This document shows positions 8,670-33,944 of a stretch of 49,079 bases of DNA, one piece after another. The DNA comes from a virus (taxonomy: Duplodnaviria; Caudoviricetes): IMG/VR virus record IMGVR_UViG_3300038829_000052, positions 1 through 49,079 of that record; one strand, given 5' to 3'. Numbering within the stretch: position 1 is the first letter of the stretch; each line of letters opens with the position of its first letter. A model generated the notes under the pieces. That model did not search any database. It was not told the origin of the DNA and saw only the letters and a program-made list of their open reading frames with translations. A program made the position numbers and the translations under genes.

Positions 8670-8809
8670 TCAAAATAATCCTTAATCCACCTTACTATAT
8701 CATGCCGTTCCTTGCACCTCGCCAATCCCTCCAGGCTGGACACCCCCAGCCATGCTTGGGGCCGGTCCCATTGCGCCCGGAACTCCTTGAGGAACATTTC
8801 CGCGTCCAT
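8648..8809 (-). CDS. Small hypothetical protein (53 aa) overlapping the portal 3' end
   Basis: MDAEMFLKEF...HDIVRWIKDYFEEREENG. Its C-terminus is duplicated downstream at 8396-8460. Confidence 0.45.
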   Translation of the reverse strand: MDAEMFLKEFRAQWDRPQAWLGVSSLEGLARCKERHDIVRWIKDYFEEREENG

Positions 8810-10694
8810 GCTCGGCCTCGTACATCTGCGCTATATGCATCTGGATGTGTTGTTCAAGCGCCTTCTTGCCTTCCGGGGGTAGTTGAGCCGTAAAGCCGTC
8901 GTGACCCTCCTTGCCCATCAAAAGCTCTTGGTGAGCAACGATGTGGCCCATGTGGTCTTGATCTGGATAAGGCGGGGGGACCATCGGCTGCGGCATGAGG
9001 GCCGTGGCGTTTTCCTTGTAGGGGTCGTCCTCTCTCGGAGGAAGTGGGGGCGGGAAGATTTCGTCTATGTTCGGCTCCTCGATAGCCTCCAGATACCGCT
9101 TGCCCACGGCATAAATCGCCATCGGGTTCTGCATGGTCAGAGGGTTCGTCATCACGAACTGAAGCACCGCCTGGGCGCGCATCAGTTTCTTCTCGGTCGT
9201 GGCCTGCTTCGGATCGGCGAGGGGTTGGACCATCAAATCCCCCCGGTAATCGTCCTTCGTCACCGCATCGGATTCAGCCGAGCCGTCATCCATGAACATG
9301 ACGTATGGCTCTACGTCAGGCATGTATTTCGTGTTCAGATCATAATACTTCTGAAGCTCCCGGCCCCAGGCTTCGATGACTCTCGCTTGAACAGCTCCGT
9401 AAACCTCAAGCGCCTGTTCGATCAGGGCCATCGCCATCGTCGGCTGGTACACCTTATCGGCCTGACCCGAGACGAGTTCCGTCACCGAGCCCAAACGATC
9501 CGACCTACCGGAAAATAGTTCGATCAACTGTCCGATGGATGCAGACGGGCCGGGAAATTTGAACTGGTAAATCCCCTTAGCGATGTCCTCCATCGAGGCG
9601 TTGATCTTGCGGAACTTCCCGAGTTCGATTTCGATCTCTCCGCCCTTCACGTCTAGTTGCGAAGAAACGAATCCCGAGGCGTTGCCGATATTCGCCAACG
9701 TGGCGGCGTCGATTGCTTGACGGACAAGCTTGTTCACGGCCTTGTTGATCGGGCCTATCAGATGGCCCATGCCGAGACCGTAAAAACCCTCGGGATTTGG
9801 TAGGTAATTGTAGTGCGTGAAGTACTCGACCGCCCGCTTGTTGTCGGTCGGGGCGCCTTGTTCGTCCGCGTCGAAGCGATAGGCAAGCCGAAGAAGCTTC
9901 TTCGATTGACGGCAAACCCAGGCAATATAAGGCTCGGCGATACCGTCGCCGTCCAAATCCCAAACGGCGTGTTGTTCCAGAACGCAGCAATCCGTCTTTA
10001 CTGCGGGTTCTGTCAGACCTTGGCTTTTGTCGGTCTCCGATTGCGTCGGGGTTTTCTCGCCGTTGTTATAAACCTCTGGCTCTGCGGAGTAGAATTGAGC
10101 TTGAACGAGGATTCGGGCGTCGTTGATGGTTTGCCAAACGATTTGCGTCTTGCGCTCGACCGAATCGATGTCTCGTGGGCCGACTCCATAAGGGATCACC
10201 AAATCTTCGGGCCGGACGTTTTCGACCATGTTCCGGCCCAGCACCGGATGAAAATACGTTTTGGTGAAAAAGCTCCCATGCAAGGGAAGACCGAACAGCA
10301 GGCGGTCCTTGTCGGCTTTGTACCCCCGGTCCCGGACCATCAACTGCCAGGACATATGCTTTGCCACACGCTTTGCTCGGGCCTCGACCTCGACATCCAA
10401 CTTCAACGTGGGAACGGCGGTAACAACCGTTCGACCGGGGAACAGGGCCTTATAGGCGCGCGCGTGGAACTGCGTGCAGGCTTCCGTCAGAAGCGGCAGC
10501 GATTCCTCGGAGGCCCCGGGCCAAGGCGGGGACTTGGGCTTCTCCGACTGATTGAACAGCCGAAGCCAACCGGCGTGCATTTCGAGCCAGCCCTTGCGGG
10601 AATCGTTATCCGACTCGAAGTCCTTGACGACCTGGGCGGCCAGTTTGTTCTGGTCGTCTTCAGGAAGCTTGGGTGCTAGGTTATCCAAAGACAC
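8700..10694 (-). CDS. Portal protein (P22-like)
   Basis: 664 aa. SR..W, PWPGAS...PLL.EAC.QF.ARAY, FYGLG.GHL, Pro/Gln-rich tail. Lies between terL and scaffold. Confidence 0.92.
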   Translation of the reverse strand: MSLDNLAPKLPEDDQNKLAAQVVKDFESDNDSRKGWLEMHAGWLRLFNQSEKPKSPPWPGASEESLPLLTEACTQFHARAYKALFPGRTVVTAVPTLKLDVEVEARAKRVAKHMSWQLMVRDRGYKADKDRLLFGLPLHGSFFTKTYFHPVLGRNMVENVRPEDLVIPYGVGPRDIDSVERKTQIVWQTINDARILVQAQFYSAEPEVYNNGEKTPTQSETDKSQGLTEPAVKTDCCVLEQHAVWDLDGDGIAEPYIAWVCRQSKKLLRLAYRFDADEQGAPTDNKRAVEYFTHYNYLPNPEGFYGLGMGHLIGPINKAVNKLVRQAIDAATLANIGNASGFVSSQLDVKGGEIEIELGKFRKINASMEDIAKGIYQFKFPGPSASIGQLIELFSGRSDRLGSVTELVSGQADKVYQPTMAMALIEQALEVYGAVQARVIEAWGRELQKYYDLNTKYMPDVEPYVMFMDDGSAESDAVTKDDYRGDLMVQPLADPKQATTEKKLMRAQAVLQFVMTNPLTMQNPMAIYAVGKRYLEAIEEPNIDEIFPPPLPPREDDPYKENATALMPQPMVPPPYPDQDHMGHIVAHQELLMGKEGHDGFTAQLPPEGKKALEQHIQMHIAQMYEAEHGRGNVPQGVPGAMGPAPSMAGGVQPGGIGEVQGTA

Positions 10695-12042
10695 GGCAGA
10701 AATCCTGTCGCCGGGGCACTTGGTCCCGGATGATGGAGGCTACCGCTCCACCGTGAACTTCAATTTCTACCGTGTCGTCTTCCATCATGGCCCGCAACTC
10801 GCCGAGTTGGGCCACCTTTTCGTAATCCGTCCAGATATCGCCGTCCGTAAAGGGCCGACCGTTCTTGATTCCGATCTTCACCCGGCCCCCACCGGGACCA
10901 TCATAGCACAGATCGTATCCGAATAAATGCACTTTACGGAAACCCAGGAGACCCGCAATCGTCACCCCCCGGGTTGCCGAGGAACATCCCCCGGCGAGCA
11001 TGACCGTCTTGCCCTGGGTCGCGTATGACTCGGCGACGACCTTCTGCTCCCCCGCCCCCACGGCGGCGTGGTAAAGCCACGCCCGCGCGCCCTTGGCCTG
11101 AAGCGTCTTGAACACCGAAGGATGGCACATCGAAGCCACGATGTAATTTACCTTTGGGTGGGGAGTGTCGATGAACTCTTTGACGTGCCCCCGGGGGTCC
11201 AAAAGGATGCAGGCAAAGGGCGGGATACCGGCGGCGATCAGCCGATCATGTGCGGACTTGACGGCGAAGATGGTCCCGCCGTTCAGGGCCATTTGGGTGA
11301 TCGTCGCGATTTCTTTTTCCAACGACGGCCCGCCCGCACACATCAGGGCTACGCCATCGTGAACCCGGCAATGGGGTAGCCGAAACGGGTGGTACATACT
11401 CAGGGCATGGCGGATGTTGTCCTGAATCTCATGGTCAGACCCTACATTCTTGGTCTTGACCTTGATCTCCTGTCCCCCCAGGGGAGGATAAACCGCCATC
11501 TGAACGTAACCGCAACGCTTCCCGTCCTTGAAAACCGGGTCTTTCTGCGGAAGGATCGTGGCCTTCAATTCGTCAACGAGTTTGTTGCACCCGAATTGAG
11601 CGGTATCCATGACCGCGCCGTTTTCGTCGGCGACATAATAATCGTCGAACACGATGCAGCGGGATTGCTTGGACAGATTGTAGTCGCCGCGAATCGTATC
11701 GACGGAATGACCGCCATCGATGAACACAAAATCCGCGTTCACGGGCTGGTTCAGATCGCGTGAGTTCGCCTTGATGACATTGATCCTGGCGTTCGTCGCC
11801 GCCTTGATCTTGTCGTGGACATCCTGAATCTTCTGGTGCGCCTTCACGTTGGATTCGGCGGCGTCGAGTTCAGCCGTCCCGTCCTCGAATAGATCAACGC
11901 CAGCGTATTGCACCCCCGGTTTGTGCTTCTGCGCCGCCTTGAGCATTTCGATGGCGCGGTCGCCATTCCACGTGCCGAATTCGAAGATGGTTTCGGGCTT
12001 GGCTTGGTCGATCAATTGGAGCAGTTGGGCGTAGCGGTTCAT
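10681..12042 (-). CDS. Fusion: class I SAM methyltransferase + DUF115/MAF_flag10 (Maf-like glycosyltransferase/MptE-like) domain
   Basis: N-terminal EFGTWNG...D.F...DFVFIDGGHS...FDDY (Methyltransf_24-like). C-terminal AGGPSL...AV.SA...L...GI.P.....DP...GF..VHLFGYD. Confidence 0.8.
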   Translation of the reverse strand: MNRYAQLLQLIDQAKPETIFEFGTWNGDRAIEMLKAAQKHKPGVQYAGVDLFEDGTAELDAAESNVKAHQKIQDVHDKIKAATNARINVIKANSRDLNQPVNADFVFIDGGHSVDTIRGDYNLSKQSRCIVFDDYYVADENGAVMDTAQFGCNKLVDELKATILPQKDPVFKDGKRCGYVQMAVYPPLGGQEIKVKTKNVGSDHEIQDNIRHALSMYHPFRLPHCRVHDGVALMCAGGPSLEKEIATITQMALNGGTIFAVKSAHDRLIAAGIPPFACILLDPRGHVKEFIDTPHPKVNYIVASMCHPSVFKTLQAKGARAWLYHAAVGAGEQKVVAESYATQGKTVMLAGGCSSATRGVTIAGLLGFRKVHLFGYDLCYDGPGGGRVKIGIKNGRPFTDGDIWTDYEKVAQLGELRAMMEDDTVEIEVHGGAVASIIRDQVPRRQDFCRVFG

Positions 12043-12290
12043 ATTTCGTACTTCGTCACAATTTGTTTCGGTTTCGGAACGATGATCTCGCCTTTGATAA
12101 TCAAAACGGCCTTATCATCGACGCCCATCCAGCACCCCTTGTCGTGGTGCGGGATTTTGTCGAGAAAGACAGGCGCGCGGTTGCAATCCTCGACGCACTC
12201 TCGAATGTACTCGTGGATGCCTTTTTCGGTTATCTCGCGGATGCTTGTGCCATCCTCCCCCGAGGAGAGAATGAAGAATTTTTCAGACAC
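12039..12290 (-). CDS. Hypothetical protein
   Basis: Inserted ORF with AAGGAG upstream. Confidence 0.55.
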   Translation of the reverse strand: MSEKFFILSSGEDGTSIREITEKGIHEYIRECVEDCNRAPVFLDKIPHHDKGCWMGVDDKAVLIIKGEIIVPKPKQIVTKYEI

Positions 12291-12332
12291 GGATCATCTC
12301 CTTCACGGCGTCGGTAAGTTGGGTGTAGCGGG

Positions 12333-12722
12333 TCATTTACCAGCCTTTTTGTTGAGCGGGAATACAGCGTGAGCCGCCGCTTCAAATTCGGCCTTACAGG
12401 CAGCGCGAGATTCGGGGGGCAAATCAGGATATGAAATTCCGTTCCCACATCTCTCGCCTTTTTCCTCTTTCCATTTATTCATAAATTTTTGCCAAAGTGC
12501 GTTCTTATGGTTTTGGTGGCTCCTCCACTGATCGAGACACCCGAGATCGCAAAAATAATAATCGCGCTCAACCGGAGGATAGATCATCATGCTGGTATAA
12601 AACCCGCTCCCGCGCCCCGGTTTGCTTTCTGCGCACAATACAAGGCGATAATCAACGCAATTACTACGCGTTGTAAGATCGTGACCACAGCCGTCGCATT
12701 CAACCTTCGTCGTTTTAGCCAT
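12333..12722 (-). CDS. Hypothetical Cys-rich (CDGC...FC..C, zinc-finger-like) protein
   Basis: ORF with RBS, lower GC than its flanks. Confidence 0.55.
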   Translation of the reverse strand: MAKTTKVECDGCGHDLTTRSNCVDYRLVLCAESKPGRGSGFYTSMMIYPPVERDYYFCDLGCLDQWRSHQNHKNALWQKFMNKWKEEKGERCGNGISYPDLPPESRAACKAEFEAAAHAVFPLNKKAGK

Positions 12723-12734
12723 CGACCATCTCCT

Positions 12735-13049
12735 TCACGGCCCCGTTGCGAAAACCGCGCGCGCAAATAGAGACCGCTGCGCTGCGCGCGCTTCACTTCT
12801 CAAATAGTCTCTATACTTGTTTTTGTAGTGGCGTTCCATTCGAGCTTTCTTTATTTTGCTGGCATTTCGTAGATAATAAAGCTTTTTCTTTCTGCTAATT
12901 GCGGCGGCTCCAAGAGCATACCGCCAACGCTTTCGTCTATTTATTTCATCTCGTCTAAGCCAACGTCGGCACCTCATCCAAAACAAAATTTTGGCGCGGT
13001 TACGTTGATAATGAAGCCGGCGTTTTCGGCGGAATTCATCCCGCGTCAC
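12735..13049 (-). CDS. Arg/Lys-rich hypothetical protein (resembles the basic N-terminal arms of HNH endonucleases)
   Basis: Repeating R..Y.RN...I units, AT-rich. Confidence 0.4.
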   Translation of the reverse strand: MTRDEFRRKRRLHYQRNRAKILFWMRCRRWLRRDEINRRKRWRYALGAAAISRKKKLYYLRNASKIKKARMERHYKNKYRDYLRSEARAAQRSLFARAVFATGP

Positions 13050-13824
13050 TGACCATCTCTCTCACAGCTTCAACGACTTGCTCGACGCTTATCACTTCCA
13101 TGGCAGCCCGGCAGTGATCACAGGGCGTGACGGTGCCGCAGCCGAGGGGGTATTTATCGGCAGCCACATATAGATTCTTGTGATTGGCGTACCCTGTAAC
13201 GTCAGGGCTGATATATCCGCCAAACACAACAACGGCTCGTTTGCCGAGGGCGGCGGCGGCGTGGTGGAGTCCTCCTTCGTGGCCGACATATCCGATGCTC
13301 CTTTCGAGGATCGCGCAGGCGTGGCGGAAGGTGGGCGCCTCCCGCATTTCATAAAATAAAACCCGGTGCGGCACGCCAATCTCAATGCGTCGGTCAAAGA
13401 ACTCTTGCCAGTGCGGCCATTGTTTGTTGGCGCCGCCACCGCCTTTTTCCTTATGCCTGGATTCGGTGACGATGAACCTTTCGCCGAACAGGCGCGTCTC
13501 ATTTGCCGCCCACTCCCGCTCCTCATCCGTCAGCCGAATCTCCCCCGGCGCAATATCCCATTTCCGCCAGAGGATGCGGTTGTCTTTCATGCCGCTGTAG
13601 TAGTGTCTGACAGACGGGCCGTTCCGCAACACCGCACAATCGAGCGTCATCTGCTTTTGCATGAACGGGAGGCCATCCCATAGCGTATCCCAATACGGCT
13701 CCCATTTCGCATCCACGGGGCAGACACGCTGGTTCGTCATTGCGTTGGTGCGTTTCGCGATGCCGGATAGCATTAAACTGTCGCCAAAACCGATTGGAGT
13801 CTCTCCTTTTGTTTGGCCGCCCAC
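13036..13824 (-). CDS. Glycosyltransferase family 9 (heptosyltransferase-like). Probable start ATC at 13794
   Basis: GFGD.LM N-terminus, K.W, YVGHEGGLHHAAAALGKRAVVVFG, C....C..C...M..ISVEQV. Confidence 0.85.
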   Translation of the reverse strand: MGGQTKGETPIGFGDSLMLSGIAKRTNAMTNQRVCPVDAKWEPYWDTLWDGLPFMQKQMTLDCAVLRNGPSVRHYYSGMKDNRILWRKWDIAPGEIRLTDEEREWAANETRLFGERFIVTESRHKEKGGGGANKQWPHWQEFFDRRIEIGVPHRVLFYEMREAPTFRHACAILERSIGYVGHEGGLHHAAAALGKRAVVVFGGYISPDVTGYANHKNLYVAADKYPLGCGTVTPCDHCRAAMEVISVEQVVEAVREMVSDAG

Positions 13825-13875
13825 CTACGACTGGCGGCCCAATTCGTTTTCTTGCCATTGCTGCGAGCCATAACC

Positions 13876-14337
13876 CTATAGAACTTCTTTGAAGAATTTG
13901 TTAAGATCAGTTTTCAAATTTTCCCGGTCATCTTTATGACCATTCAGCCAATTCGCGATCTCACATGCACAAGCTGCCCTTTGCTTTCCCTCGATGTTGG
14001 CGAGCATAGCGTTGTATCGCTTCTCGGAAGCCCCGAGAGAAGCCAGAGAAAGAGCGGTCCATCCAACCCCATATTTCTTTGCTTCTCCCCATATTGCCTC
14101 GGTGCGCGCCGCGATCTCTCGGGCGACTTCGGGGCCAAGAGTCATGAGCCTGTGATCAAATGAGCGCCACGGCGGGACGCGAGCCGTAATCGCATCGTCT
14201 TCGCCAAATTCGACGGTGAAAAACCGATATATGGCATCGTGAAAATGTAGTGCTGCCGAGCGGCATTTGCATTTATCGCAAGGTCTATTGCGCGAAGAAT
14301 CGAAAAGACAACGGCGTTTTGTCTTGGGCAGCCTCAT
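13876..14337 (-). CDS. Hypothetical protein
   Basis: ORF with GGAG RBS inside the GT cluster. Confidence 0.5.
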   Translation of the reverse strand: MRLPKTKRRCLFDSSRNRPCDKCKCRSAALHFHDAIYRFFTVEFGEDDAITARVPPWRSFDHRLMTLGPEVAREIAARTEAIWGEAKKYGVGWTALSLASLGASEKRYNAMLANIEGKQRAACACEIANWLNGHKDDRENLKTDLNKFFKEVL

Positions 14338-14357
14338 TATTTTATCTCCTTAGTTCA

Positions 14358-15065
14358 TCAAGTTGGTATTTTCTTCGCATAAGCCCACCATTCGGCATCG
14401 AAGTCAGATTTGACCGCTAATTCCATATCCGGCGTTCCCCCAGTGAAATGAACGCCCTTGGGCGTAATTGCCGGATTACTGTGCCCGACAAGCCAATTCC
14501 ATGTTTCCGGTAGGGGACCGATGTCGTCGTCTTGAGCCCACCGCATCCCATGCAGCCACCAGCCATCGGCGGAATTGACGGTGTACGCCGAAAGCTCGCG
14601 GCATTTGCTGGGGGTGAACAGCATCAGGGAGGACCAGTTCTTCCGGTCATAAACCGTCTGAAGTACCCCATCCATCTTGGAGTATTCCGTGGGCTTGTGA
14701 TCGTGCTGGACGCATTGAACGGCCAAGTCGGGATTGTAGAGGTCCAGCAGTTCTTTGATGTCCGCTCTTACGAGAAAGTCTCCATCCATGAACAGGGCCG
14801 GTTCGTCATCGTATTTGCAGATGTGGGGGACGAGGAACCGAGTGAAGCTGAACAGGGTGGAGAATGGTTTTCGGTCTCTGGCATCGTACATCTGGCCGGA
14901 TTCGTCAACAAAGTATGCCCTGCGAAAACCGGGCTTTCGTAGTTCGTGCATCTTGAGGAGTTTGATGTCGAGCGGAATAGAGGAATGTGCAAGCAAAGAA
15001 TCGCGGCACACCTTGGATGCAACGTCGTCCCGAACATCGTAGCCGATGAATATGCGGAGGGTCAT
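14358..15065 (-). CDS. GT-A fold glycosyltransferase (GT8-like)
   Basis: IFIGYD, ST.FSFTRFLVP, FMDGD (DxD), RKNWSS, WNWLV, HFT.G.P. Confidence 0.88.
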   Translation of the reverse strand: MTLRIFIGYDVRDDVASKVCRDSLLAHSSIPLDIKLLKMHELRKPGFRRAYFVDESGQMYDARDRKPFSTLFSFTRFLVPHICKYDDEPALFMDGDFLVRADIKELLDLYNPDLAVQCVQHDHKPTEYSKMDGVLQTVYDRKNWSSLMLFTPSKCRELSAYTVNSADGWWLHGMRWAQDDDIGPLPETWNWLVGHSNPAITPKGVHFTGGTPDMELAVKSDFDAEWWAYAKKIPT

Positions 15066-15307
15066 GACAACACACTCGCAGAGGAACGTTTCACGCGATA
15101 CTGTGCTTCATGGAGGGCTTCCTTCGCCCGCGCCCACCCGCCGCAAATGCGCGCCGCCGGCTTGATTATTCGCCAGTCTATTTCAACGGTGCGCCAGTCA
15201 ACGTCTCCGGCGGTATTGAGAATTTCTACCGCCGTTTCTCTCGGGTGGGGGTCCCCCTGAAACGCGAGAATTTTCGCGACCTCAGCCAGCATGACGGCGC
15301 GGCTCAT
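15062..15307 (-). CDS. Hypothetical protein
   Basis: ATGA-coupled at both ends. Confidence 0.5.
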   Translation of the reverse strand: MSRAVMLAEVAKILAFQGDPHPRETAVEILNTAGDVDWRTVEIDWRIIKPAARICGGWARAKEALHEAQYRVKRSSASVLS

Positions 15308-15822
15308 GGCGTTTCCAGAAGACTGGCTTCGATGTTCGTATCGGCGCCGGCTTCGGCTATCTTATTTGCCCACCACCCCATCGGACGAATGGTAACATGC
15401 GTGTTTCTGCCGTCCGGCAGCGTTTTCTTGGCCGCGCGGCAACAGACGGTGAAGAACACGTACTTCGTCGCCAGCTTATAGATGCCCTCGATCATGGGCG
15501 TGATTTCTTCTTCCGGTACATGCTCCAAGACATCCGAGCAGATCACCATGTCGAATTTGCCGCCCGGCAGTTCGTCGAGACCCGGGACGGCGGGATCGTA
15601 CATCGTCACGTCCACGCCCCACTTCTTGTCGAGCGAGTGCGGCGGCATGTATTGATAGCCCTGACCGGAGCCGTAATCGAGGACGGTTTTGATGCCATGC
15701 TCTTTGACGAGCGCGCCGATCTCATCCGCGAATTTCAAGACGGACAGGCCGAGGAATTTCCCCTGGGCGTGAAGTGCGCGGTATTGATCGAGAAGCGACA
15801 TTTCGTGTGGCGATCTATTCAT
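15304..15822 (-). CDS. Class I SAM-dependent methyltransferase (Methyltransf_23-like)
   Basis: VLDYGSGQG, YDP, FDMVICSDVLEHVP. Confidence 0.88.
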   Translation of the reverse strand: MNRSPHEMSLLDQYRALHAQGKFLGLSVLKFADEIGALVKEHGIKTVLDYGSGQGYQYMPPHSLDKKWGVDVTMYDPAVPGLDELPGGKFDMVICSDVLEHVPEEEITPMIEGIYKLATKYVFFTVCCRAAKKTLPDGRNTHVTIRPMGWWANKIAEAGADTNIEASLLETP

Positions 15823-16699
15823 TTAACATTCTCCATGCCGTACCATCAGCAATCTCGGAAAGTGAAAATTGCTGATAACCCAGCCAGTTACAAAGCCTGT
15901 TAACCCTTCCTCTGTCGAAATAATCCGGGCTTTCGAGATTATCCCACGCCCACGATAGATCGCCGATGCAATGGTCTCCCAAGGCAATGGCTGGAGTGCC
16001 GCCGATCAAGGCATGTAGCGCGGCCATGCTTTCATGGGTGATTACACAGTGCGTCGTCGGCAGGATTTCACGAAGGCCGCCCTTGAACAGCTTCACCCGG
16101 ATCGGGCGGTCGGTGCGCTTCTTGATCTCCGCATCGACCTGGGCAACCCATAGGGCGGGGTCGATTCTCTGGTATTGGGCGACGAATTTGGAAGGTGGGA
16201 TAACCAGGATGTCGTCGCCCTTCTTGTTCCACATCCCGATGACATTGACCCGAGTATCGTTCCATCTATCGGGGGGGCGGTCCTCGCACTCGGTCGCTTG
16301 AAATGCGTTCTTCGTAACCCGGTAATATCCACTCAAATCGCCGGCTTCGTGATTCGATTGCTTCACATAGCCGTTGTCGATGTGCCAATAGTCGTGCCGC
16401 ATCAATTTTGCCGAGGCGATTAGTTCCCCACATCCACGGAGAATCCCGTATGTCGCCATCGGACCCGTGACGATGAACCCGCGCTGCATCAATTCTCTCG
16501 TCGAGCGGTTGAAATCGTAGCCCTGTTCCCCGAGGGCCTGCGGAAGCTGGACGGTCTTCCCTCCACATCCTTGGGCGAAGGCCCCCGCGATCTTCTGCGA
16601 AAGGATATGCGGGGTCACGTAAACGGTCGGCGGCTCGTCGCATTGTTCGGCGATGGCAACCGATGTAATCGCGATGGCTTCGGCGAGGCTACCAGTCAT
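15815..16699 (-). CDS. GT-B fold, capsule-polysaccharide-synthesis-like glycosyltransferase
   Basis: YGILRG, W.IDNGY, YYRVTKN, ILVIPPS, TDRPIRV, C.IT..S.AAL.ALI.G.P, L.YQQFSL.EI..G.AW. Confidence 0.7.
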   Translation of the reverse strand: MTGSLAEAIAITSVAIAEQCDEPPTVYVTPHILSQKIAGAFAQGCGGKTVQLPQALGEQGYDFNRSTRELMQRGFIVTGPMATYGILRGCGELIASAKLMRHDYWHIDNGYVKQSNHEAGDLSGYYRVTKNAFQATECEDRPPDRWNDTRVNVIGMWNKKGDDILVIPPSKFVAQYQRIDPALWVAQVDAEIKKRTDRPIRVKLFKGGLREILPTTHCVITHESMAALHALIGGTPAIALGDHCIGDLSWAWDNLESPDYFDRGRVNRLCNWLGYQQFSLSEIADGTAWRMLNE

Positions 16700-16854: not shown

Positions 16855-18369
16855 TCAAGCAGTTGCATAAGGATCAATCCTCCGTTGCCTCGGTTTGCCC
16901 ATATCATCGTATTCCTGCTTCGTCGTCACGGAGGAGCGATATGCGAGCGCATACTGTAATTCATCATATACGTGGCACTCTTGATTCTTGTCCGGGCCTT
17001 TGTCGGGATCGTTTTCGTCAAGAACCAGTGGCGGGACCGTCCGCCAGAACTGCGTGCAGTTCGCCGTGATGAACAACATGGGGTCGTCGGAGGTATTGCC
17101 GTCTTTTGAAAACTTACTATTGCCGGCAAGACGCGCGATGATTTCGGCGTAGTTGACCTTCAAATCCTTTCTCGATTGGATTAGATTGATTCTGCCGTCC
17201 GTGACACGGAACATGCGTTCTCTCGGAGAGGGGCCGTCGTGGGAAGACCACATACCAGAGTCGCCAACACGGGCGGTGGGGGCGGGCGCGGGACACTCTC
17301 CGGTTATTCGCCCGTAGTAATCGACAATCGTCGCCCTGTGGTTCGCCTCGCGCTCTAAGATTCCGTTTGCGACCTGATCAGCTGATAGTCTGAGTCCGTG
17401 GTTGGGTCGCCCATCAAAGCCATACCACTCGGCGTAACGAATAACGGCTCCGGCAGGGAGGTCTCGCTCTGGCCATCCGTCCTTAGCGGCGAGAGCAGCA
17501 CCATCGGAGACCGCATACCAACCAACTGAGAAAGGGCGAGCCGTCCCCCAGTCCAGGGCCATAAACCTTGTCCAATGACGCGGAGGAGAAAATTGCCTGA
17601 GCTGGTGTCTCTCTCTAGAGAGATTGTGCAGGGCAGCGCCAACAACAGCGTCCCAATCGCCTTCTGTAAGGGCTCTGGCGAGTTCGGGGGCGAGGGCGCG
17701 AAACTGTCCTGCATAGGATTTGTCCAGATAGAGGTTATCCGCCATCTTGGCGGGAATGAAGATCGACGGCCATCCGTGATCTTCCGGGTTCTTGGGGTCT
17801 CGCATCGATTCGTCGTAGAAATACTTCAAGGGGGGGGACGGATCGATGAAGGTGGTTTTCAAGAACTGGTGCCCGGGCCCCCCGGGATTACTGGCGTAGA
17901 CGATCCTGGGGAGCCAGCCCTTGCCCTTGGGCGTCCACGAACCGAGACGGACGCGAGTTCTCAAATACGTGATTTGGTATTCCGTGAGGTGAGCAGCCTC
18001 GTCTATGCCAAGCCAGTGAATTTCCGCACCTTGGTAGCGGAGAACGTCCTTCTCCTTCTCGCAATAACAGAAGTTTATACCCGACCCGTTGTAGAATTCG
18101 AACCGTTTCTTGGTGTCGTTGTACTTTCCCAAGACCGGGGGGATCAACTGCTGTATCTTGCGGATGTGGTTGTCTTCCAACTCACCCAGGGTTCGGCGGA
18201 ACAGGTAGGCGTCGAGACCATGGTTATCGAGGCAGAAGGAAATCGCATCCCATAGAAGCGAGTAGCTCTTGCCGCCGCCGGCAGCGCCCCCGTAAAATAT
18301 CTGCCGGGCGGCTGTCGTGTGCAGAAGCTTCTGTTTGTCCTGGGGCTCGTAGGGGAGGGTGATGTTCAC
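16855..18369 (-). CDS. terL: Terminase large subunit
   Basis: YGGAAGGGKS (Walker A), GIDEA (Walker B), ASNPGG.GH, LDWG nuclease motif, H.YD.L.Y. Confidence 0.95.
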   Translation of the reverse strand: MNITLPYEPQDKQKLLHTTAARQIFYGGAAGGGKSYSLLWDAISFCLDNHGLDAYLFRRTLGELEDNHIRKIQQLIPPVLGKYNDTKKRFEFYNGSGINFCYCEKEKDVLRYQGAEIHWLGIDEAAHLTEYQITYLRTRVRLGSWTPKGKGWLPRIVYASNPGGPGHQFLKTTFIDPSPPLKYFYDESMRDPKNPEDHGWPSIFIPAKMADNLYLDKSYAGQFRALAPELARALTEGDWDAVVGAALHNLSRERHQLRQFSPPRHWTRFMALDWGTARPFSVGWYAVSDGAALAAKDGWPERDLPAGAVIRYAEWYGFDGRPNHGLRLSADQVANGILEREANHRATIVDYYGRITGECPAPAPTARVGDSGMWSSHDGPSPRERMFRVTDGRINLIQSRKDLKVNYAEIIARLAGNSKFSKDGNTSDDPMLFITANCTQFWRTVPPLVLDENDPDKGPDKNQECHVYDELQYALAYRSSVTTKQEYDDMGKPRQRRIDPYATA

Positions 18370-18761
18370 TCGTACTTTGCTTTCAGCGCGGCGAGCGTCT
18401 CGCGTTCCAGTGCAACCCGGGCCGCCTTATCACGCGCCTCTCTCGCTTCCGCCTCAGCGGCCCGCTCGGCGATGTCTTCCGGTGTTTCGGGGCGGGACCA
18501 ACTCGCGTATATTGAAAGCCCTCCCTCGTCACCATAACATCTGAATTCCGTGGAAGCCCGATACTCGGGGGGCACTTGATCGAGAAGTGTCTGCGCCCAA
18601 GCTACCAATTCAGGGAGCGTGCCGGGGAACCCCTCCCCGATTTCCAGATAGGTCTCGATCTTCCCCAAACCACGCGGAAGTGGCGCGATCCAATTCATCG
18701 AGGCACCGCTTGTGCAAATCATGGCGGAGGCAACACAAAAGGTATCGAAAGTGTTGTTCAC
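18366..18761 (-). CDS. Hypothetical protein
   Basis: RPET.E...R....ERE.LA.LKAKYE C-terminus, coupled to terL. Confidence 0.55.
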   Translation of the reverse strand: MNNTFDTFCVASAMICTSGASMNWIAPLPRGLGKIETYLEIGEGFPGTLPELVAWAQTLLDQVPPEYRASTEFRCYGDEGGLSIYASWSRPETPEDIAERAAEAEAREARDKAARVALERETLAALKAKYE

Positions 18762-18837
18762 GTCAGAAACCAGATGACGAACGGCGCCACCACCATAATC
18801 CCCGGGGGCACAAGCAACACCAGCCAGAGCCAGATGT

Positions 18838-19071
18838 TCACCGCCCCGCCGCCCACGCCAAAAACAGCGCCAGCACGCCCGTCACCGCCCCAAGGAGAAC
18901 CTGACCCGATACCAGAAGCGCCCCCGACATGAACGCCAGGGTCGTCTGCGACGCCGAAACCCGCCATCGGGGAATCAGCCCCATCTCCTGCTTGATCTTG
19001 ATCACAAGCGAGGTCGGCACCGAAGGATGCCGGATAACCACCTTGTCGGGCCGGGCCGCTACCTTCCACAT
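18838..19071 (-). CDS. Small membrane protein (followed by a 27-aa hydrophobic ORF at 18758-18841)
   Basis: Hydrophobic C-terminal half, coupled starts. Confidence 0.5.
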   Translation of the reverse strand: MWKVAARPDKVVIRHPSVPTSLVIKIKQEMGLIPRWRVSASQTTLAFMSGALLVSGQVLLGAVTGVLALFLAWAAGR

Positions 19072-19462
19072 CTCGTCACCATAGAATGATTATAGACTAC
19101 ATTTCGATCCAGGGGCGGTCAAGCAGTTGCCGGCGGCTACCGTGGAATGGTATTTTATCCAGATGTGCCCGTTCCCACCACAATCCGTCCTCGCCCGCAT
19201 CTGGCGCCGATCATACGGGCTATACGACTGGCTCTACGACTACCCCAATATCGTCGATTACCAGGGCGCCCACAACGATAAGGGCTACATCTACGATGAG
19301 CCCCGCAATAATCATACGTGTACGAACGATGGTGCTACCTAAGGTTACGTCCGATTCGGCCCTATTGTCTCGCAACACACTGATCCAAAACACACATTTC
19401 TTTTACATTGCGTAAAAAATCGTAGGTTCCCCCAATACCCCCTCCCCACACAGAGGTGCATC

Positions 19463-19660
19463 GTGACAGAAATAGAGGCTGACAGGCCCGAAACTGAAAT
19501 CACCCCAGCCATGATTGAGGCTGGGGTGCACGCCTATCTGGATCACGGTGAGCTTTTCGAGACGCTCAAGGAGATCGTCACCGCAATCTATCGTGCCATG
19601 GACGAAGCTAAGGGCGCCCGCCTGCCGCCTGAGGCAAATCCACCGCCAGCCTCAAGCTAA
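19463..19660 (+). CDS. Hypothetical protein (EITPAMIEAG type)
   Basis: GAGG RBS. Motif common in alphaproteobacterial phage small ORFs. Confidence 0.55.
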   Translation: MTEIEADRPETEITPAMIEAGVHAYLDHGELFETLKEIVTAIYRAMDEAKGARLPPEANPPPASS

Positions 19661-19936
19661 ACATGGCTACTGAGTCCATGGATTTTCCCAACCCAGCCCC
19701 CGAGGTCTGCAACAGACCGGATCAAGCCCATCCATTGCAGGGCCGCCCGCAGATGCCTAGCCGATGGGTTACTCGGGTGGCTACCGATACACGGGTGTGA
19801 ATACACGCGCAGCCGATCCGCCGAGGCCCCAGGCCACTTCACCAACGTGGGGGTAGCCTCATCGGACCAGGTGCCGGTCGTACCACATATGGTGTCGGAC
19901 GGGGTGGCGATGTGGTAGCCCGTCACCACACATAGC

Positions 19937-19949
19937 TAAGCCATTGATG
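19937..19949 (-). promoter_or_regulatory. IHF-like binding site
   Basis: Minus strand cATCAAtggcTTA versus consensus WATCAAnnnnTTR (one mismatch). Confidence 0.45.
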
Positions 19950-19973
19950 TTGCTAGTGTGCGCTGCGGTATAA

Positions 19974-20001
19974 GTGTTCCATAATGTACATTATGCGATG
20001 T
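19974..20001 (-). other. dif-like XerC/XerD recombination site
   Basis: ACATCGCATAA-TGTACA-TTATGGAACAC versus E. coli dif GGTGCGCATAA-TGTATA-TTATGTTAAAT: 19/28 overall, 17/18 in the core. 11-6-11 architecture, non-coding context. Confidence 0.75.
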
Positions 20002-20100: not shown

Positions 20101-20349
20101 CTATGTTTCAGCGCCGCGATGTTTCCCGGGAAACATTCTACTGAGCCACATATGCCAAATCTTGTGACAGGGCTGGCAGAGCCATGACACGTCTAGGGGC
20201 TTGCGGTAGTCGTGGTGGTGTTTGTGGGCTTGAGCTCTACAGAGGGCGCAGGGTTGGCGGGTGATCTTGCCGCGGCGTTGGTAGCCGTTGGCAGTAGCCC
20301 GGACAATTGAGCGTCGTTGCTGTTCTGAGGCGAGGTTGCGGTATCTCAA
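20101..20349 (-). CDS. Small HNH endonuclease (terminase-associated)
   Basis: PCALC...HHHDY.KPLDV.WLCQPCH..WH. TTG start overlaps the terS stop. Confidence 0.75.
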   Translation of the reverse strand: MRYRNLASEQQRRSIVRATANGYQRRGKITRQPCALCRAQAHKHHHDYRKPLDVSWLCQPCHKIWHMWLSRMFPGKHRGAET

Positions 20350-20945
20350 GCCTTGTGCTCCACGGTCACGACCGGCGCATCTTCGGCGCGGCCGATGTTC
20401 AGATTGACCTGAATATTGGTGCCGCCTGACTTCTCGGCGTAGTCGCCTTTGGTCTTTGCGTGGGATTGGAGGCGCCATTGGGCGGCTTTCCAGTCTCGGG
20501 GCGCGGCTGCGTCGACATGGCCCACCATTGAAGCATGCCAGGTCTCTATCGAGCGTTCGCAGAGTTCGGCAAATTCTGCATCGGTTTCCCGCCAGTTAGT
20601 TAGTGTGCGCTCACTTATGCCCGCCAATGATGCTGCGGTGCGGTATGGCAAGCCTTTTTGGAGTGATTCTAGGATAGCGCGGGCGGCCGGTTCGGTCCTG
20701 GTGGTGGTGGTAGCCGCGCCAGCGGCTTGGGCGACTATGCTTGGTAGCCGAGCGGTAGCCGCTACGATGGCGCTCTTTGCATCCCAGCCTTCCTTGGCGC
20801 CGCGCTTCTGGATCGCCCTATGTGTGATTGGGACACCATCCCGGGCAAGGGTGCGCTTGGCGCATTCCCGCGTTGACAGGCCGGCGGCGAAATCGGTTCG
20901 GATGGCATTCCAATCGACGCCGGGCTTTGAATTATAACGCGACAT
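20346..20945 (-). CDS. terS: Terminase small subunit
   Basis: DW.AIR.DF.AG.S.RE...AI.KR..KEGW HTH, a second HTH (G.PYR.AA.LAGISERTL.NW), DWKAA.W.L. Confidence 0.8.
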   Translation of the reverse strand: MSRYNSKPGVDWNAIRTDFAAGLSTRECAKRTLARDGVPITHRAIQKRGAKEGWDAKSAIVAATARLPSIVAQAAGAATTTTRTEPAARAILESLQKGLPYRTAASLAGISERTLTNWRETDAEFAELCERSIETWHASMVGHVDAAAPRDWKAAQWRLQSHAKTKGDYAEKSGGTNIQVNLNIGRAEDAPVVTVEHKA

Positions 20946-23488: not shown

Positions 23489-23674
23489 ATGATGGAATAC
23501 AACACAGCATCAACCCTCAAACATGCCCGCCAAGCCCTCAGGATGACCCAGGATGCTTTCGGAGAGGCTTTGGGCGTCCATTGGACCACCATCAGCCGAT
23601 ACGAGCGTGGGGCGCCAATTCCGCGCGTTGTGGCTTTGGCGGTCGAATGTCTGTTGCGGCGCAGCAAAGAGTAG
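23489..23674 (+). CDS. XRE-family HTH regulator
   Basis: LKHARQALRMTQDAFGEALGVHWTTISRYERG..IP. Confidence 0.85.
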   Translation: MMEYNTASTLKHARQALRMTQDAFGEALGVHWTTISRYERGAPIPRVVALAVECLLRRSKE

Positions 23675-24240: not shown

Positions 24241-24635
24241 GGCTTCACCAAGATATCCCGGATGCGCGCCAGCCCATCGGCGGAGCACAGGCTGTTGACC
24301 GCGCGCTTTCCAATCGAGCCGATCAAGATTCCGCGTTGCGCGTTCGTCAGGTACCCGGCGTGCTTGTTCAGCCCGTCCTTGATCGCACCGCGAACGCACA
24401 TCGCGACGTAATCCGCCAGTTCTTGCGGGCACCCTATTGGAATGGGATGGAGTCGGACCTTCCCTTCGCGAGCCCACTTAACCTGAGCGCGCGTTCCACT
24501 GCTGGCGGTGCCCGTGCGTCGCGGGTCGAGGTTGCCAGCATCAGCCGTGGTTTCAGACGCAGTTTGGCCGCCACGGCCATCATCAGCGGCGGTTACAGCA
24601 CCGCCAATCTCGTTTATATCATTCATCGCGCTCAT
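24237..24635 (-). CDS. Hypothetical protein
   Basis: ATGA-coupled at both ends. Confidence 0.5.
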   Translation of the reverse strand: MSAMNDINEIGGAVTAADDGRGGQTASETTADAGNLDPRRTGTASSGTRAQVKWAREGKVRLHPIPIGCPQELADYVAMCVRGAIKDGLNKHAGYLTNAQRGILIGSIGKRAVNSLCSADGLARIRDILVKP

Positions 24636-25036
24636 GGCTTCACCGCTTTCATGGGGAACACATTCGCCGGCACCATCCGCGCAAACACGGGCAAGTCCTC
24701 GACCGATTTAGCGCACTCAATCTCCGGCGTTATCGGCTTGCCAGCCGCCTTGTAGAACGCCAGCACCTCGGCAACGGTTTGCGCGGGCCTGACCACGGGC
24801 TCGGGCTTGATCGTTTCGTGTAACTCGCCGTCCATCCATCTGCCGGCCCTTAACCACGTTGCCGGGTGCGGAATGTACCGCGCCTCTTTGCCTTCCGAAA
24901 TGCACCATGCGGCGAATTTCTTGGCGCCGTCGATGATAGCGTTCGCATCGTATTTTGCCGTCATTTGTCGCCATGCTTTCTCAGCATCCAAACGACCAAC
25001 TTTCCTTGGGTATGCTCTGTAGAACTCATCGAACAT
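24632..25036 (-). CDS. Short phage replication protein (C-terminal domain of replisome-organiser/initiator type only)
   Basis: FDEFY.AYPRKVG...A.KAW...YIPHPATWL...RW.D. Confidence 0.75.
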   Translation of the reverse strand: MFDEFYRAYPRKVGRLDAEKAWRQMTAKYDANAIIDGAKKFAAWCISEGKEARYIPHPATWLRAGRWMDGELHETIKPEPVVRPAQTVAEVLAFYKAAGKPITPEIECAKSVEDLPVFARMVPANVFPMKAVKP

Positions 25037-28370: not shown

Positions 28371-28703
28371 TCATGCTGCGCGGACCTCTACTTCAGCACC
28401 CCTCACATTGTCATTCCACGCGCACAGCACGGACACGACAAAGCGGTCATCCGCGATCATCCGCATCTTCGTTAACAAATCCAAGATCGCTTTGATTCGA
28501 TTGTCACAGTCAGCGCGTTTATCGCGGGGGCCGATTTGGATGTTCACCAGGACATCTCCCGAGAACTTCTGGGGGCGTTGGGATAGGAGGGTGTAACCAG
28601 CCTCGGTTAGCCATGCCGTATAGGATTTGGTTTTCACTCGGCCCCGACCCGGCACGTTCCGGTACATCTGGTTGACCGATGGCGGCATAGATAGGCGGAT
28701 CAT
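28371..28703 (-). CDS. rusA: RusA-family Holliday junction resolvase
   Basis: PPSVN..Y, R.D.DN..KA..D.L.....DD..V. Confidence 0.88.
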   Translation of the reverse strand: MIRLSMPPSVNQMYRNVPGRGRVKTKSYTAWLTEAGYTLLSQRPQKFSGDVLVNIQIGPRDKRADCDNRIKAILDLLTKMRMIADDRFVVSVLCAWNDNVRGAEVEVRAA

Positions 28704-29572: not shown

Positions 29573-30484
29573 ATGCCCACCCCGATCAAAACCCAAGCCG
29601 AACTCGACGCCGCAATCGCAGCGCGTCCGAACGATTGGCATATCGTCGCCGAGGGCCGGTTTTCGATCAGCATTGGGCGCGTCGAGGCGTGGGGAAACGC
29701 GTCCGTCGAGGCGCGGGAAAACGCGTCCGTCGAGGCGCGGGGAAACGCGTCCGTCGTGGCGTGGGGAAACGCGTCCGTCGAGGCGCGGGGAAACGCGTCC
29801 GTCGTGGCGTGGGGAAACGCGTCCGTCGTGGCGTGGGGAAACGCGTCCGTCGAGGCGCGGGAAAACGCGTCCGTCGAGGCGCGGGAAAACGCGTCCGTCG
29901 AGGCGTGGGGAAACGCGTCCGTCGAGGCGTGGGGAAACGCGTCCGTCGAGGCGCGGGAAAACGCGTCCGTCGAGGCGTGGGGAAATGTCTTCGTTCGCCT
30001 TTTCAGCGCCCTGAAAATCACTGTGTCGTTCGGCGTCATAATCGCCAAACACGGTGAAGCGAAGACGCTGACGGGCGGTCAAATCGTCGAGTGCAAGCCG
30101 CCGCTGACCGCAAAGGAATGGTGCGAGCATCACGGCATCGCCGTCAAAGACGGTGTTGCGCTAGTGTTCAAAGGTGTGAATGCCGAGTTCCATTCCGAAC
30201 AGGGCGGCGTCTACACCCCAGGCTCAACTCCGGTCGCGCCGGATTGGGACGGCGGCAAAGCCGAGTGTGGCGGCGGCCTTCACTTTTCGCCGCTACCGCA
30301 GATGACGCACGAATTTTGCACGCCCATCAAATTCGTTGCGTGCCCCGTGGCTCTCGCGGATATGCGGGCGCCGCAAGAGGGCGACGATTACCCGAACAAG
30401 ATCAAGGCGCGCGGCGCGCACGCGCCGGTCTACGAAGTTGACAAGAAGGGCGATCGTGTCGCGCCCACGGAGAAAGCCGCATGA
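29573..30484 (+). CDS. Octapeptide-repeat (beta-solenoid-like) protein with a C-terminal CGGGLHF domain
   Basis: 13 x V[EV]A[WR][GE]NAS, then FK.V...F.S..G..Y.PG...CGGGLHF...K.KA. Confidence 0.8.
   Translation: MPTPIKTQAELDAAIAARPNDWHIVAEGRFSISIGRVEAWGNASVEARENASVEARGNASVVAWGNASVEARGNASVVAWGNASVVAWGNASVEARENASVEARENASVEAWGNASVEAWGNASVEARENASVEAWGNVFVRLFSALKITVSFGVIIAKHGEAKTLTGGQIVECKPPLTAKEWCEHHGIAVKDGVALVFKGVNAEFHSEQGGVYTPGSTPVAPDWDGGKAECGGGLHFSPLPQMTHEFCTPIKFVACPVALADMRAPQEGDDYPNKIKARGAHAPVYEVDKKGDRVAPTEKAA
29681..29992 (+). repeat. 24-bp tandem repeat, 12 full copies plus 1 partial
   Basis: gtcg[a/t]ggcg[t/c]ggg[g/a]aaacgcgtcc. Confidence 0.95.
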
Positions 30485-33319: not shown

Positions 33320-33559
33320 TTGATGCCGACCTTCTGCTTCGAGTGCGATTTCTGTCAGAGAGACCACAAGGGCGCCCCCGAATATACTTGGACATGTCTG
33401 ATGTTCCCAAGACTGGAATCGGGCTTTCTCAGCCCGACGATACGAGACTCGAATCTCCCACCGTACATGCACTGTAAAAATATCAATGGCGGCGCTTGTC
33501 CGCTGTTTAAGCATAAAGCTGACGGTCAATCCAATCTATCTCTTCAAGAAGGAAAATGA
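33320..33559 (+). CDS. Cys-rich hypothetical protein
   Basis: C..C..C...W.C..FPR...PPY..C..IN.G.CPL. Confidence 0.55.
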   Translation: MMPTFCFECDFCQRDHKGAPEYTWTCLMFPRLESGFLSPTIRDSNLPPYMHCKNINGGACPLFKHKADGQSNLSLQEGK

Positions 33560-33560
33560 C

Positions 33561-33944
33561 ATGCGAATCTCCGGTGCCTTCCCGTCCACCTATCTCAAAG
33601 CTGCCGATCTCCAAGGAAAGTCGGTGCGGGTCAAGATCGACCGCATCGCCATGGAAGACATTGGCGGGGATCACAAGCCCGTTCTGTACTTCGAAGGCAA
33701 GGACAAGGGCATGGTCCTGAACAAGACCAACGCGAACAACATCGCGGCTGCCTACGGCGATGAAAGTGACGACTGGGGCGGAGCCGAAGTGGAACTATTC
33801 GAGGCCCAGGTCGATTTCCAAGGTAAGACCGTGCCGGCTATTCGCGTCCGCATCCCGCCGAGGAAACCGGAGAAGGCCGCGCAGCGCCCCGCCCCAGAAA
33901 CCAAGCCGCCGAGCAATTTCGATGATTCGGACATCCCGTTCTAG
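33561..33944 (+). CDS. Putative single-stranded DNA-binding protein
   Basis: FPS.YLKA.DL...KP.LYF......LNKTN...G...DW.G. Acidic DDSDIPF tail characteristic of SSBs. Confidence 0.65.
   Translation: MRISGAFPSTYLKAADLQGKSVRVKIDRIAMEDIGGDHKPVLYFEGKDKGMVLNKTNANNIAAAYGDESDDWGGAEVELFEAQVDFQGKTVPAIRVRIPPRKPEKAAQRPAPETKPPSNFDDSDIPF

Follow-up and report, generated by a model that had tools for sequence, protein, structure and literature searches.

We wondered what a tailed phage might gain from a dif-like XerCD site that sits between its two terminase genes. The stretch of DNA analyzed here, referred to as the window, is the 49,079-base record of a tailed phage, with a CheckV completeness of 100%. 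Its ends have 8 bases in common and one ORF continues over the junction as far as a stop codon that shares bases with the following start, so the record is probably one whole circle. A sequence-only reading had reported the site and had recognized no tyrosine or serine recombinase in what appeared to be a complete genome. Six-frame searches of the window agreed with this, yielding no tyrosine integrase (PF00589), no resolvase (PF00239) and no large serine recombinase (PF07508). The 28-mer was found exactly where that reading had placed it, on the minus strand and between terS and terL, both of which are also minus-strand genes. Scans against PHROG (98 ORFs) and Pfam (130 ORFs), hand-picked among the 310 ORFs listed, gave the following features, shown here together with the 28-mer:

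8700..10694, minus strand: portal protein of a tailed phage (PHROG 1216, PF23899, PF24175)
16855..18369, minus strand: terminase large subunit, terL (PHROG 979, E 5e-37; PF03237)
19974..20001, minus strand: dif-type 28-mer (XerC arm 19991-20001, spacer 19985-19990, XerD arm 19974-19984)
20101..20478, minus strand: endonuclease-like ORF between terS and the site (PHROG 2340, E 2e-16)
20346..20945, minus strand: terminase small subunit, terS (PHROG 4102/4044/1482, E 3e-8)
24632..25036, minus strand: replication initiation protein (PHROG 270, E 2e-17)
28371..28703, minus strand: RusA-like Holliday junction resolvase (PF05866, PHROG 34)

The 28-mer lies 344 bases past the terS stop and 1604 bases before the start of the terL ORF. 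Capsid and amidase genes were identified in the same scans, and the SU10-type portal together with an adaptor suggests a podovirus. Since none of the window ORFs scanned matched a DNA polymerase, the phage likely needs a circular template. Rfam returned no family in the window and no promoter was found at the 28-mer.

Elsewhere in the window, a block between terL and the portal gene (10681-16699) holds glycosyltransferase-like, methyltransferase and MptE-like genes, and an acetyltransferase gene and a GroES gene follow the portal gene; some parts occur in relatives too. Positions 29573-30484 hold a 303-residue ORF of short tandem repeats (PHROG 15773). The region 33486-33944 (ORF 33561-33941) may, judged by its position, encode an annealing or ssDNA-binding protein; it belongs to an unnamed viral family (PHROG 21613) and its Atlas matches are likewise unnamed.

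We asked how closely the 28-mer resembles a host dif. Its two arms, of 11 bp each, flank a 6-bp centre and are partly dyad-symmetrical about it, and its inner 16 bases form a perfect palindrome. Both the 11-6-11 dif architecture and the core identity of 17/18 to E. coli dif that had been claimed for it were reproduced (dif taken from MG1655; 19/28 overall). The 12 specified inner-arm bases have one exact match in the window, the 28-mer itself, and such a match arose in 5 of 1000 dinucleotide shuffles. Scored with a matrix built from 23 host dif sites, the 28-mer reached 25.1 bits, against 8.1 for the runner-up in the window and 16.4 for the maximum of 20 shuffles, a test that is partly circular because the 23 sites had been found with a pattern derived from the window. 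Allowing at most one mismatch, the 15 specified arm bases were present in 161 of 301 alphaproteobacterial genomes (including the unpublished G032, on which nothing here depends), mostly once per genome, and the reversed control in few. This supports the alphaproteobacterial host proposed earlier, for which a comparison with host dif collections had been suggested. The 28-mer is identical to four of five sampled host dif sites at 21-23 of 28 positions and to the fifth at 19 of 28. Host spacers listed for Alphaproteobacteria are mostly a few related AT-rich words. In the rows shown in Table 1 of PMC2731167, Rhizobiales and Rickettsiales have the same XerD arm type, and the beta and delta entries have others. 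Judged by sequence, then, the arms are of the alphaproteobacterial dif type. As described in excerpts of the same source, the chromosomal dif of Alphaproteobacteria has in common with the 28-mer the 11-6-11 layout, both arm cores, the single copy and the intergenic position (PMC2731167). Unlike it, the window site is carried by a phage next to terS, its spacer drifts and an IHF-like motif is adjacent. Counted with what we take to be the KOPS motif, the window has two copies pointing towards the XerD side and four pointing away, which is no chromosome-terminus pattern for this phage record. Pooled over seven site-bearing records the polarity was 33 to 14, with 13 to 3 in one record (G306) alone, coding-strand bias being uncontrolled in these counts.

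We then turned to relatives of the phage. TerL searches returned 230 loci, among them an identical copy of the window (L083) that was kept out of the support. The sequence-only reading had proposed looking for the 28-mer between terS and terL of related phages; the arms are indeed kept upstream of terL in seven lineages with 48-64% TerL identity (L001/L002/L084, L086, L009, L014, L027, L092 and L106), with a changed spacer. Three more distant lineages (L133/L164, L034 and L044) also carry a site upstream of terL. In TerL relatives with an identified terS the site comes about 10 to 2700 bases after this gene, and the gap from site to terL is about 0.3 to 3.7 kb. One relative, seen in contig runs X3 and X4, has roughly 2 kb of extra DNA between site and terL (window counterpart 18253-19796). 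Among 21 whole records scanned, the best site was located upstream of terL in seven, two of which (G308 and G320) do not exceed their own shuffles, and 14 had no site above shuffles. The site is present in 11 of the 35 rows of a TerL tree and forces at least four gains or losses, some of the rows scored as lacking it being partial loci. A large TerL clade, in which terS mostly abuts terL, is without the site, and within the group of TerL relatives the orientation of the site has flipped. The arms of L164 match the dif of its gammaproteobacterial bin at 11/11 (XerC) and 10/11 (XerD) positions and the spacer at 3/6; binning is weak evidence of a host, and to that extent the arms may track the dif class of the host while the spacer differs.

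Among 16 deposited phages chosen for the similarity of their TerL, a site after terS is present in two, C72C1 (OQ984150) and MJing1 (OQ540923). MJing1 was deposited as a Microcystis phage, yet its XerD arm is of the alphaproteobacterial type, and the arm type may point to a co-cultured host. Excerpts of PMC2731167 state that Pelagibacter lacks Xer. Pelagibacter phages had been considered as a negative control, and none of four has a site; with sites in only two of all 16 deposited phages chosen by TerL, this comparison does not discriminate. The cultured TerL relative phiM5 is without a dif-like site and has a 357-bp terminal repeat that ends 36 bases before terL. The ORF in this repeat was not named terS because it did not match the TerS set. 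With terS alone as query no viral relatives were obtained, an exact 23-base match of the site was absent from IMG/VR, and short blastn searches of deposited phages gave chance-level matches only.

A scan of IMG/VR for exact arms extended the picture to at least 120 loci, with about 390 estimated in all. The reversed control pattern gave 113 matches, so about 3 in 10 pattern matches may be due to chance. We searched 80 of the loci together with their flanks for terL (132 ORFs of 330-700 residues, 13 longer ones falling outside this range). In 36 of these 80 listed loci terL lies within 5 kb, and the site is upstream of it in 36/36 and within 1.3 kb in 27. These 36 loci fall into 13 TerL clusters at 40% identity, and in 33 of them the XerD arm comes first along terL. 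When 20 of the other 40 listed loci were analyzed with their flanks, terL was found in 12, with the site upstream and the XerD arm first in 12/12. Eight more of the 80, recovered with wider flanks or across contig ends, also have the site upstream of terL, with orientations of 4:4. The window site itself has the minority orientation. A terS gene was identified in 23 listed loci, with the site after this gene in 16 of them and before it in seven. In 18 of 120 listed loci (5.9 expected) the nearest contig end is no more than 300 bases away from the site, and on contigs longer than 20 kb this holds for 6 of 64 (1.0 expected); for the control, it holds for three of 80 listed matches, counted by eye. 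The position upstream of terL is a weak argument on its own because ORF-free DNA crowds there anyway, with 24-66% of it within 4 kb in the five larger site-bearing records (G000, G306-G308 and G320; crude count).

Further genes of the site-bearing phages were surveyed as well. Among 47 records searched, only 3 of 24 near-complete site-bearing ones encode an integrase. Annealing proteins (ERF, RecT, Sak4 and one weak Rad52) were detected in 11/25 site-bearing records vs 10/14 records without the site (Fisher p 0.18), and the idea that the site replaces an annealing protein is therefore unsupported. Neither an FtsK-gamma activator nor an XafT-type activator, presumably of the PF12375 (DUF3653) family, exceeded the cut-off in any of 41 records. 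Judged by gene content (replication protein, ligase, CobS/CobT-like), about nine of the 80 listed loci belong to phage-plasmids. In one group of phage-plasmids (L339, L349, L352, L363, L364, L371, L372, L392, L396 and L459), most have an alphaproteobacterial dif-like site beside the replication gene.

The spacer behaves differently from the arms. The 119 listed exact-arm viral sites have 80 kinds of spacer, with a host-type spacer in one. The two relatives L001 and L002 are identical at 2394 of 2400 positions, and their spacers differ. The bases next to the arms lean towards the host bases (last A in 93/119 and third T in 75/119 of the listed sites). The window spacer differs at one base from a spacer common among hosts, with the bases on the XerC side unchanged; a host-type XerC-side triplet is found in 32/119 listed viral sites, and several clade members retain host-like triplets. 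The sequence-only reading had pointed out that the window spacer is palindromic, which is correct; that the palindrome matters did not hold up, as none of the 119 sites has a palindromic spacer and near-identical relatives differ in theirs, and we reject the palindromic spacer as a feature of the site. Nor should it remove directionality, as had been claimed. From what is known of the tetramer, the site should still be directional by virtue of its unequal XerC and XerD arms.

The earlier reading had also described an IHF-like site about 25 bp away. Using what we take to be the IHF consensus, we located it at nearly that distance:

19937..19949, minus strand: IHF-consensus-like 13-mer with one mismatch, on the XerD side of the 28-mer, 24 bp from the XerD arm and 52 bases from where the 28-mer starts

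The window contains 16 matches of this quality vs 19.2 expected, so the single motif is at chance level. The motif recurs beside related sites, on either side and at varying offsets: +52/+53 in the window, L092 and L034, -27 in L086 and L014, and -21 in L001/L002; it is missing beside the site of L009. An exact IHF consensus lies within 80 bases of the site in 28 of 120 listed IMG/VR loci, vs 0.8 expected from shuffles, and beside one of the 23 host dif sites used. A second element was found on the other side of the 28-mer:

20119..20136, no strand assigned: perfect 18-bp palindrome, 14/16 to the parS consensus

It is 118 bases away from the dif-like site and resembles what we take to be the parS consensus, as well as, presumably, a Noc-binding site. 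Palindromes of this kind also lie near the site in L086 and L133/L164. We rejected the palindrome as a fixed partner since most site-bearing relatives, and 120/120 listed pattern loci, lack it in the vicinity of the site.

Taken together, we propose that host XerC and XerD recombine two copies of the site on the phage's own DNA, most likely circularizing a predicted terminally redundant genome, and we put the probability of this reading at roughly 0.4. The site would recombine with its own copy, since its arms follow the host while its spacer drifts. Action on own DNA also fits better than integration, because spacers drift, two integrase-bearing phages carry the site and no prophage was found split at it. 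Circularization is favored over the handling of multimers by the closeness to terS, the orientation bias, the excess at contig ends and the terminal repeat that precedes terL in phiM5, the last two being indirect pointers to a site within the terminal redundancy. The sequence-only reading had offered integration or multimer resolution; its notion of an action on the phage's own DNA holds up better than integration, and circularization of terminally redundant DNA had not been considered there. A wider version of our proposal, which we advance a little more tentatively, is that a host-matched dif accompanied by an IHF site is located at the packaging end of many unrelated tailed phages, most of which have no integrase, and that host XerCD, in the manner of Cre, circularizes the injected genome via terminal copies.

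Phage P1 circularizes by Cre at loxP, a recombinase site near its pac and packaging genes. The window shares with P1 a tyrosine-recombinase site close to the terminase genes and, probably, the need for a circular template. Unlike in P1, the recombinase would be host XerCD, as no Cre-like gene is encoded beside the site, and the terminal redundancy is a prediction. We infer that the system would be a host-enzyme analogue of P1 pac-loxP-Cre and not a member of it. Two copies of the site would be present whenever the virion genome is terminally redundant or a multimer has formed. If packaging starts in or near terS, the site would fall within the terminal redundancy and be present twice, in direct repeat. 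XerCD would then pair the two terminal copies, which would always have the same spacer, and IHF might bend the flank and aid pairing. The second exchange could be performed by FtsK-activated XerD, or the junction could be cut by the phage RusA or by replication. Alternatively, a XerC-only exchange might be completed by RusA or replication, as at cer, where excerpts of PMC5357621 describe a XerC-only exchange that is completed afterwards. Several findings speak against circularization. In seven of 23 loci the site comes before terS and would not be duplicated by packaging from a P22-like pac, and an annealing protein that could circularize the genome is encoded by 11 of 25 site-bearing records. 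In addition, KOPS polarity in the window is unfavorable and no XerD activator gene exceeded the cut-off in 41 records. ORF-free DNA upstream of terL weakens the argument from position, eight loci split 4:4 in orientation, the window has the minority orientation, phiM5 has the terminal repeat and no site, and about 113 of the roughly 390 pattern matches may be due to chance.

The closest alternative, which we regard as less likely, is that host XerCD resolves or unlinks multimers on replicating circles or in a plasmid-like carrier state, as at cer and psi, with the proximity to terS merely reflecting non-coding space. It accounts equally well for spacer drift and for an accessory-like IHF motif, and it can draw on the non-coding DNA upstream of terL, the phage-plasmids (about 9/80 listed loci, most with the site beside a replication gene) and the parS-like palindrome near the site in the window and L086. 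According to excerpts of PMC5357621, the plasmid sites cer and psi share with the window site the use, here proposed, of host XerCD between own copies, a divergent spacer and a candidate accessory site in the flank. Unlike at cer and psi, the candidate accessory factor is IHF, on either side and at several offsets, and plasmid partition genes were not found: ParA (PF13614) and an S24 repressor are absent from the window and four relatives, and ParB from the 130 window ORFs scanned. The palindrome, moreover, is absent near the site in most relatives and all 120 listed pattern loci, and multimer resolution leaves the orientation bias and the contig-end excess unexplained.

We also considered that XerC and XerD might bind without recombining. 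Together with IHF, they would assemble into a bent complex on the packaging origin and there determine the terminase cut, shield the end or act as a repressor of late transcription. IHF is known to help cleavage at lambda cos and P1 pac, and mere binding would account for the closeness to terS, the orientation bias and the freedom of the spacer. It would leave open why the two arms are conserved at a distance of exactly 6 bases and why host bases are favored at the spacer positions adjacent to them, features that a cleaved site would be expected to show. We found no precedent for such a complex and consider it improbable.

Integration of the phage at host dif by host XerCD, which would resemble that of IMEX and leave a prophage split between terS and terL, appears about as doubtful, or marginally more so. 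Searches found no integrase in the window or in 21 of 24 near-complete records with the site, and the window spacer retains the XerC-side bases that, in excerpts of PMC5357621, are used in VGJphi-type integration, as do several clade members with host-like triplets. In addition, gokushovirus dif motifs vary in their spacer and yet integrate, according to excerpts of PMC7062461. Against this, only 32/119 listed sites have the host-type triplet, G320 and G325 carry both the site and their own integrase, and the provirus G335 has the site internally. We looked for prophages flanked by dif copies, as the earlier reading had suggested, and in this small sample found none. GTDB contained no close prophage (best TerL 44%). 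A clear dif-like site lies within 1.5 kb in none of 30 integrated terL loci, the best from 72 positive genomes among 401 alphaproteobacterial ones. Among the joints and loose ends listed for contig runs X1-X4 none is at the site, which argues weakly, and the window and four relatives lack an S24 repressor. With IMEX (CTXphi, VGJphi, TLCphi, the gonococcal island and enterogokushoviruses, as covered by excerpts of PMC5357621, PMC9226527 and PMC7062461) the window shares the lack of an own integrase, a dif-like site and, presumably, reliance on XerCD. Unlike these, it is a tailed dsDNA phage with the site inside its packaging operon and no integrated form found and, unlike TLCphi-type IMEX, it has no XafT-type (DUF3653) gene above the cut-off, as was the case in all 41 records searched.

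Host genomes contained further dif-like sites. In two alphaproteobacterial genomes (L498 in G130:C9 and L501 in G239:C1), a terL is followed at 500-600 bases by a second dif-like site, which has a spacer of its own. Both of these terL genes follow a ParB-methylase gene and the one ORF tested after each is not a portal gene; the two loci may be capsid-less islands. Two genomes, G276 and G047 (L239, L240 and L264-L271), have four to six dif-like sites each on different contigs, with one shared variant XerC arm and different spacers, and no terL is near the four that were checked. In two host genomes dif-like sites are directly beside tyrosine integrase genes (L499 and L500).

Finally, that the 28-mer is a phage operator or a terminase recognition palindrome resembling dif by chance is very improbable: the perfect palindrome of its inner 16 bases, a small HTH gene at 23516-23626 in the window and the 113 matches of the reversed control would fit, but unrelated phages, whose TerS proteins are unrelated too, retain in the outer bases the XerC/XerD asymmetry of host dif, the arms follow the host class, the site is single-copy and its palindromic centre is not conserved.

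In the literature searched (titles and abstract openings, with subscription papers and supplements outside the scope), we found no report of dif beside terminase genes. The work found there deals with plasmid sites, with Bacillus phages that carry Xer-like genes of their own and with integration of filamentous phages, tailless phages and microviruses at dif; the part of PMC11769102 consulted holds nothing relevant to dif beside terminase genes. Within these bounds, Xer hijacking is known for integration of filamentous phages, microviruses and islands and for plasmid dimers, and was not encountered for the packaging end of tailed phages. Sequence comparison presents the site as a variant of Xer hijacking that is real, widespread, host-matched and tied to terminase genes, with a predicted function. 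Because the arms follow the dif of the host, they could serve as a 28-bp host-class barcode for uncultured phages. If our proposal is true, it would add a host-dependent route to genome circularization and, with it, a host factor which the cell might protect or do without.
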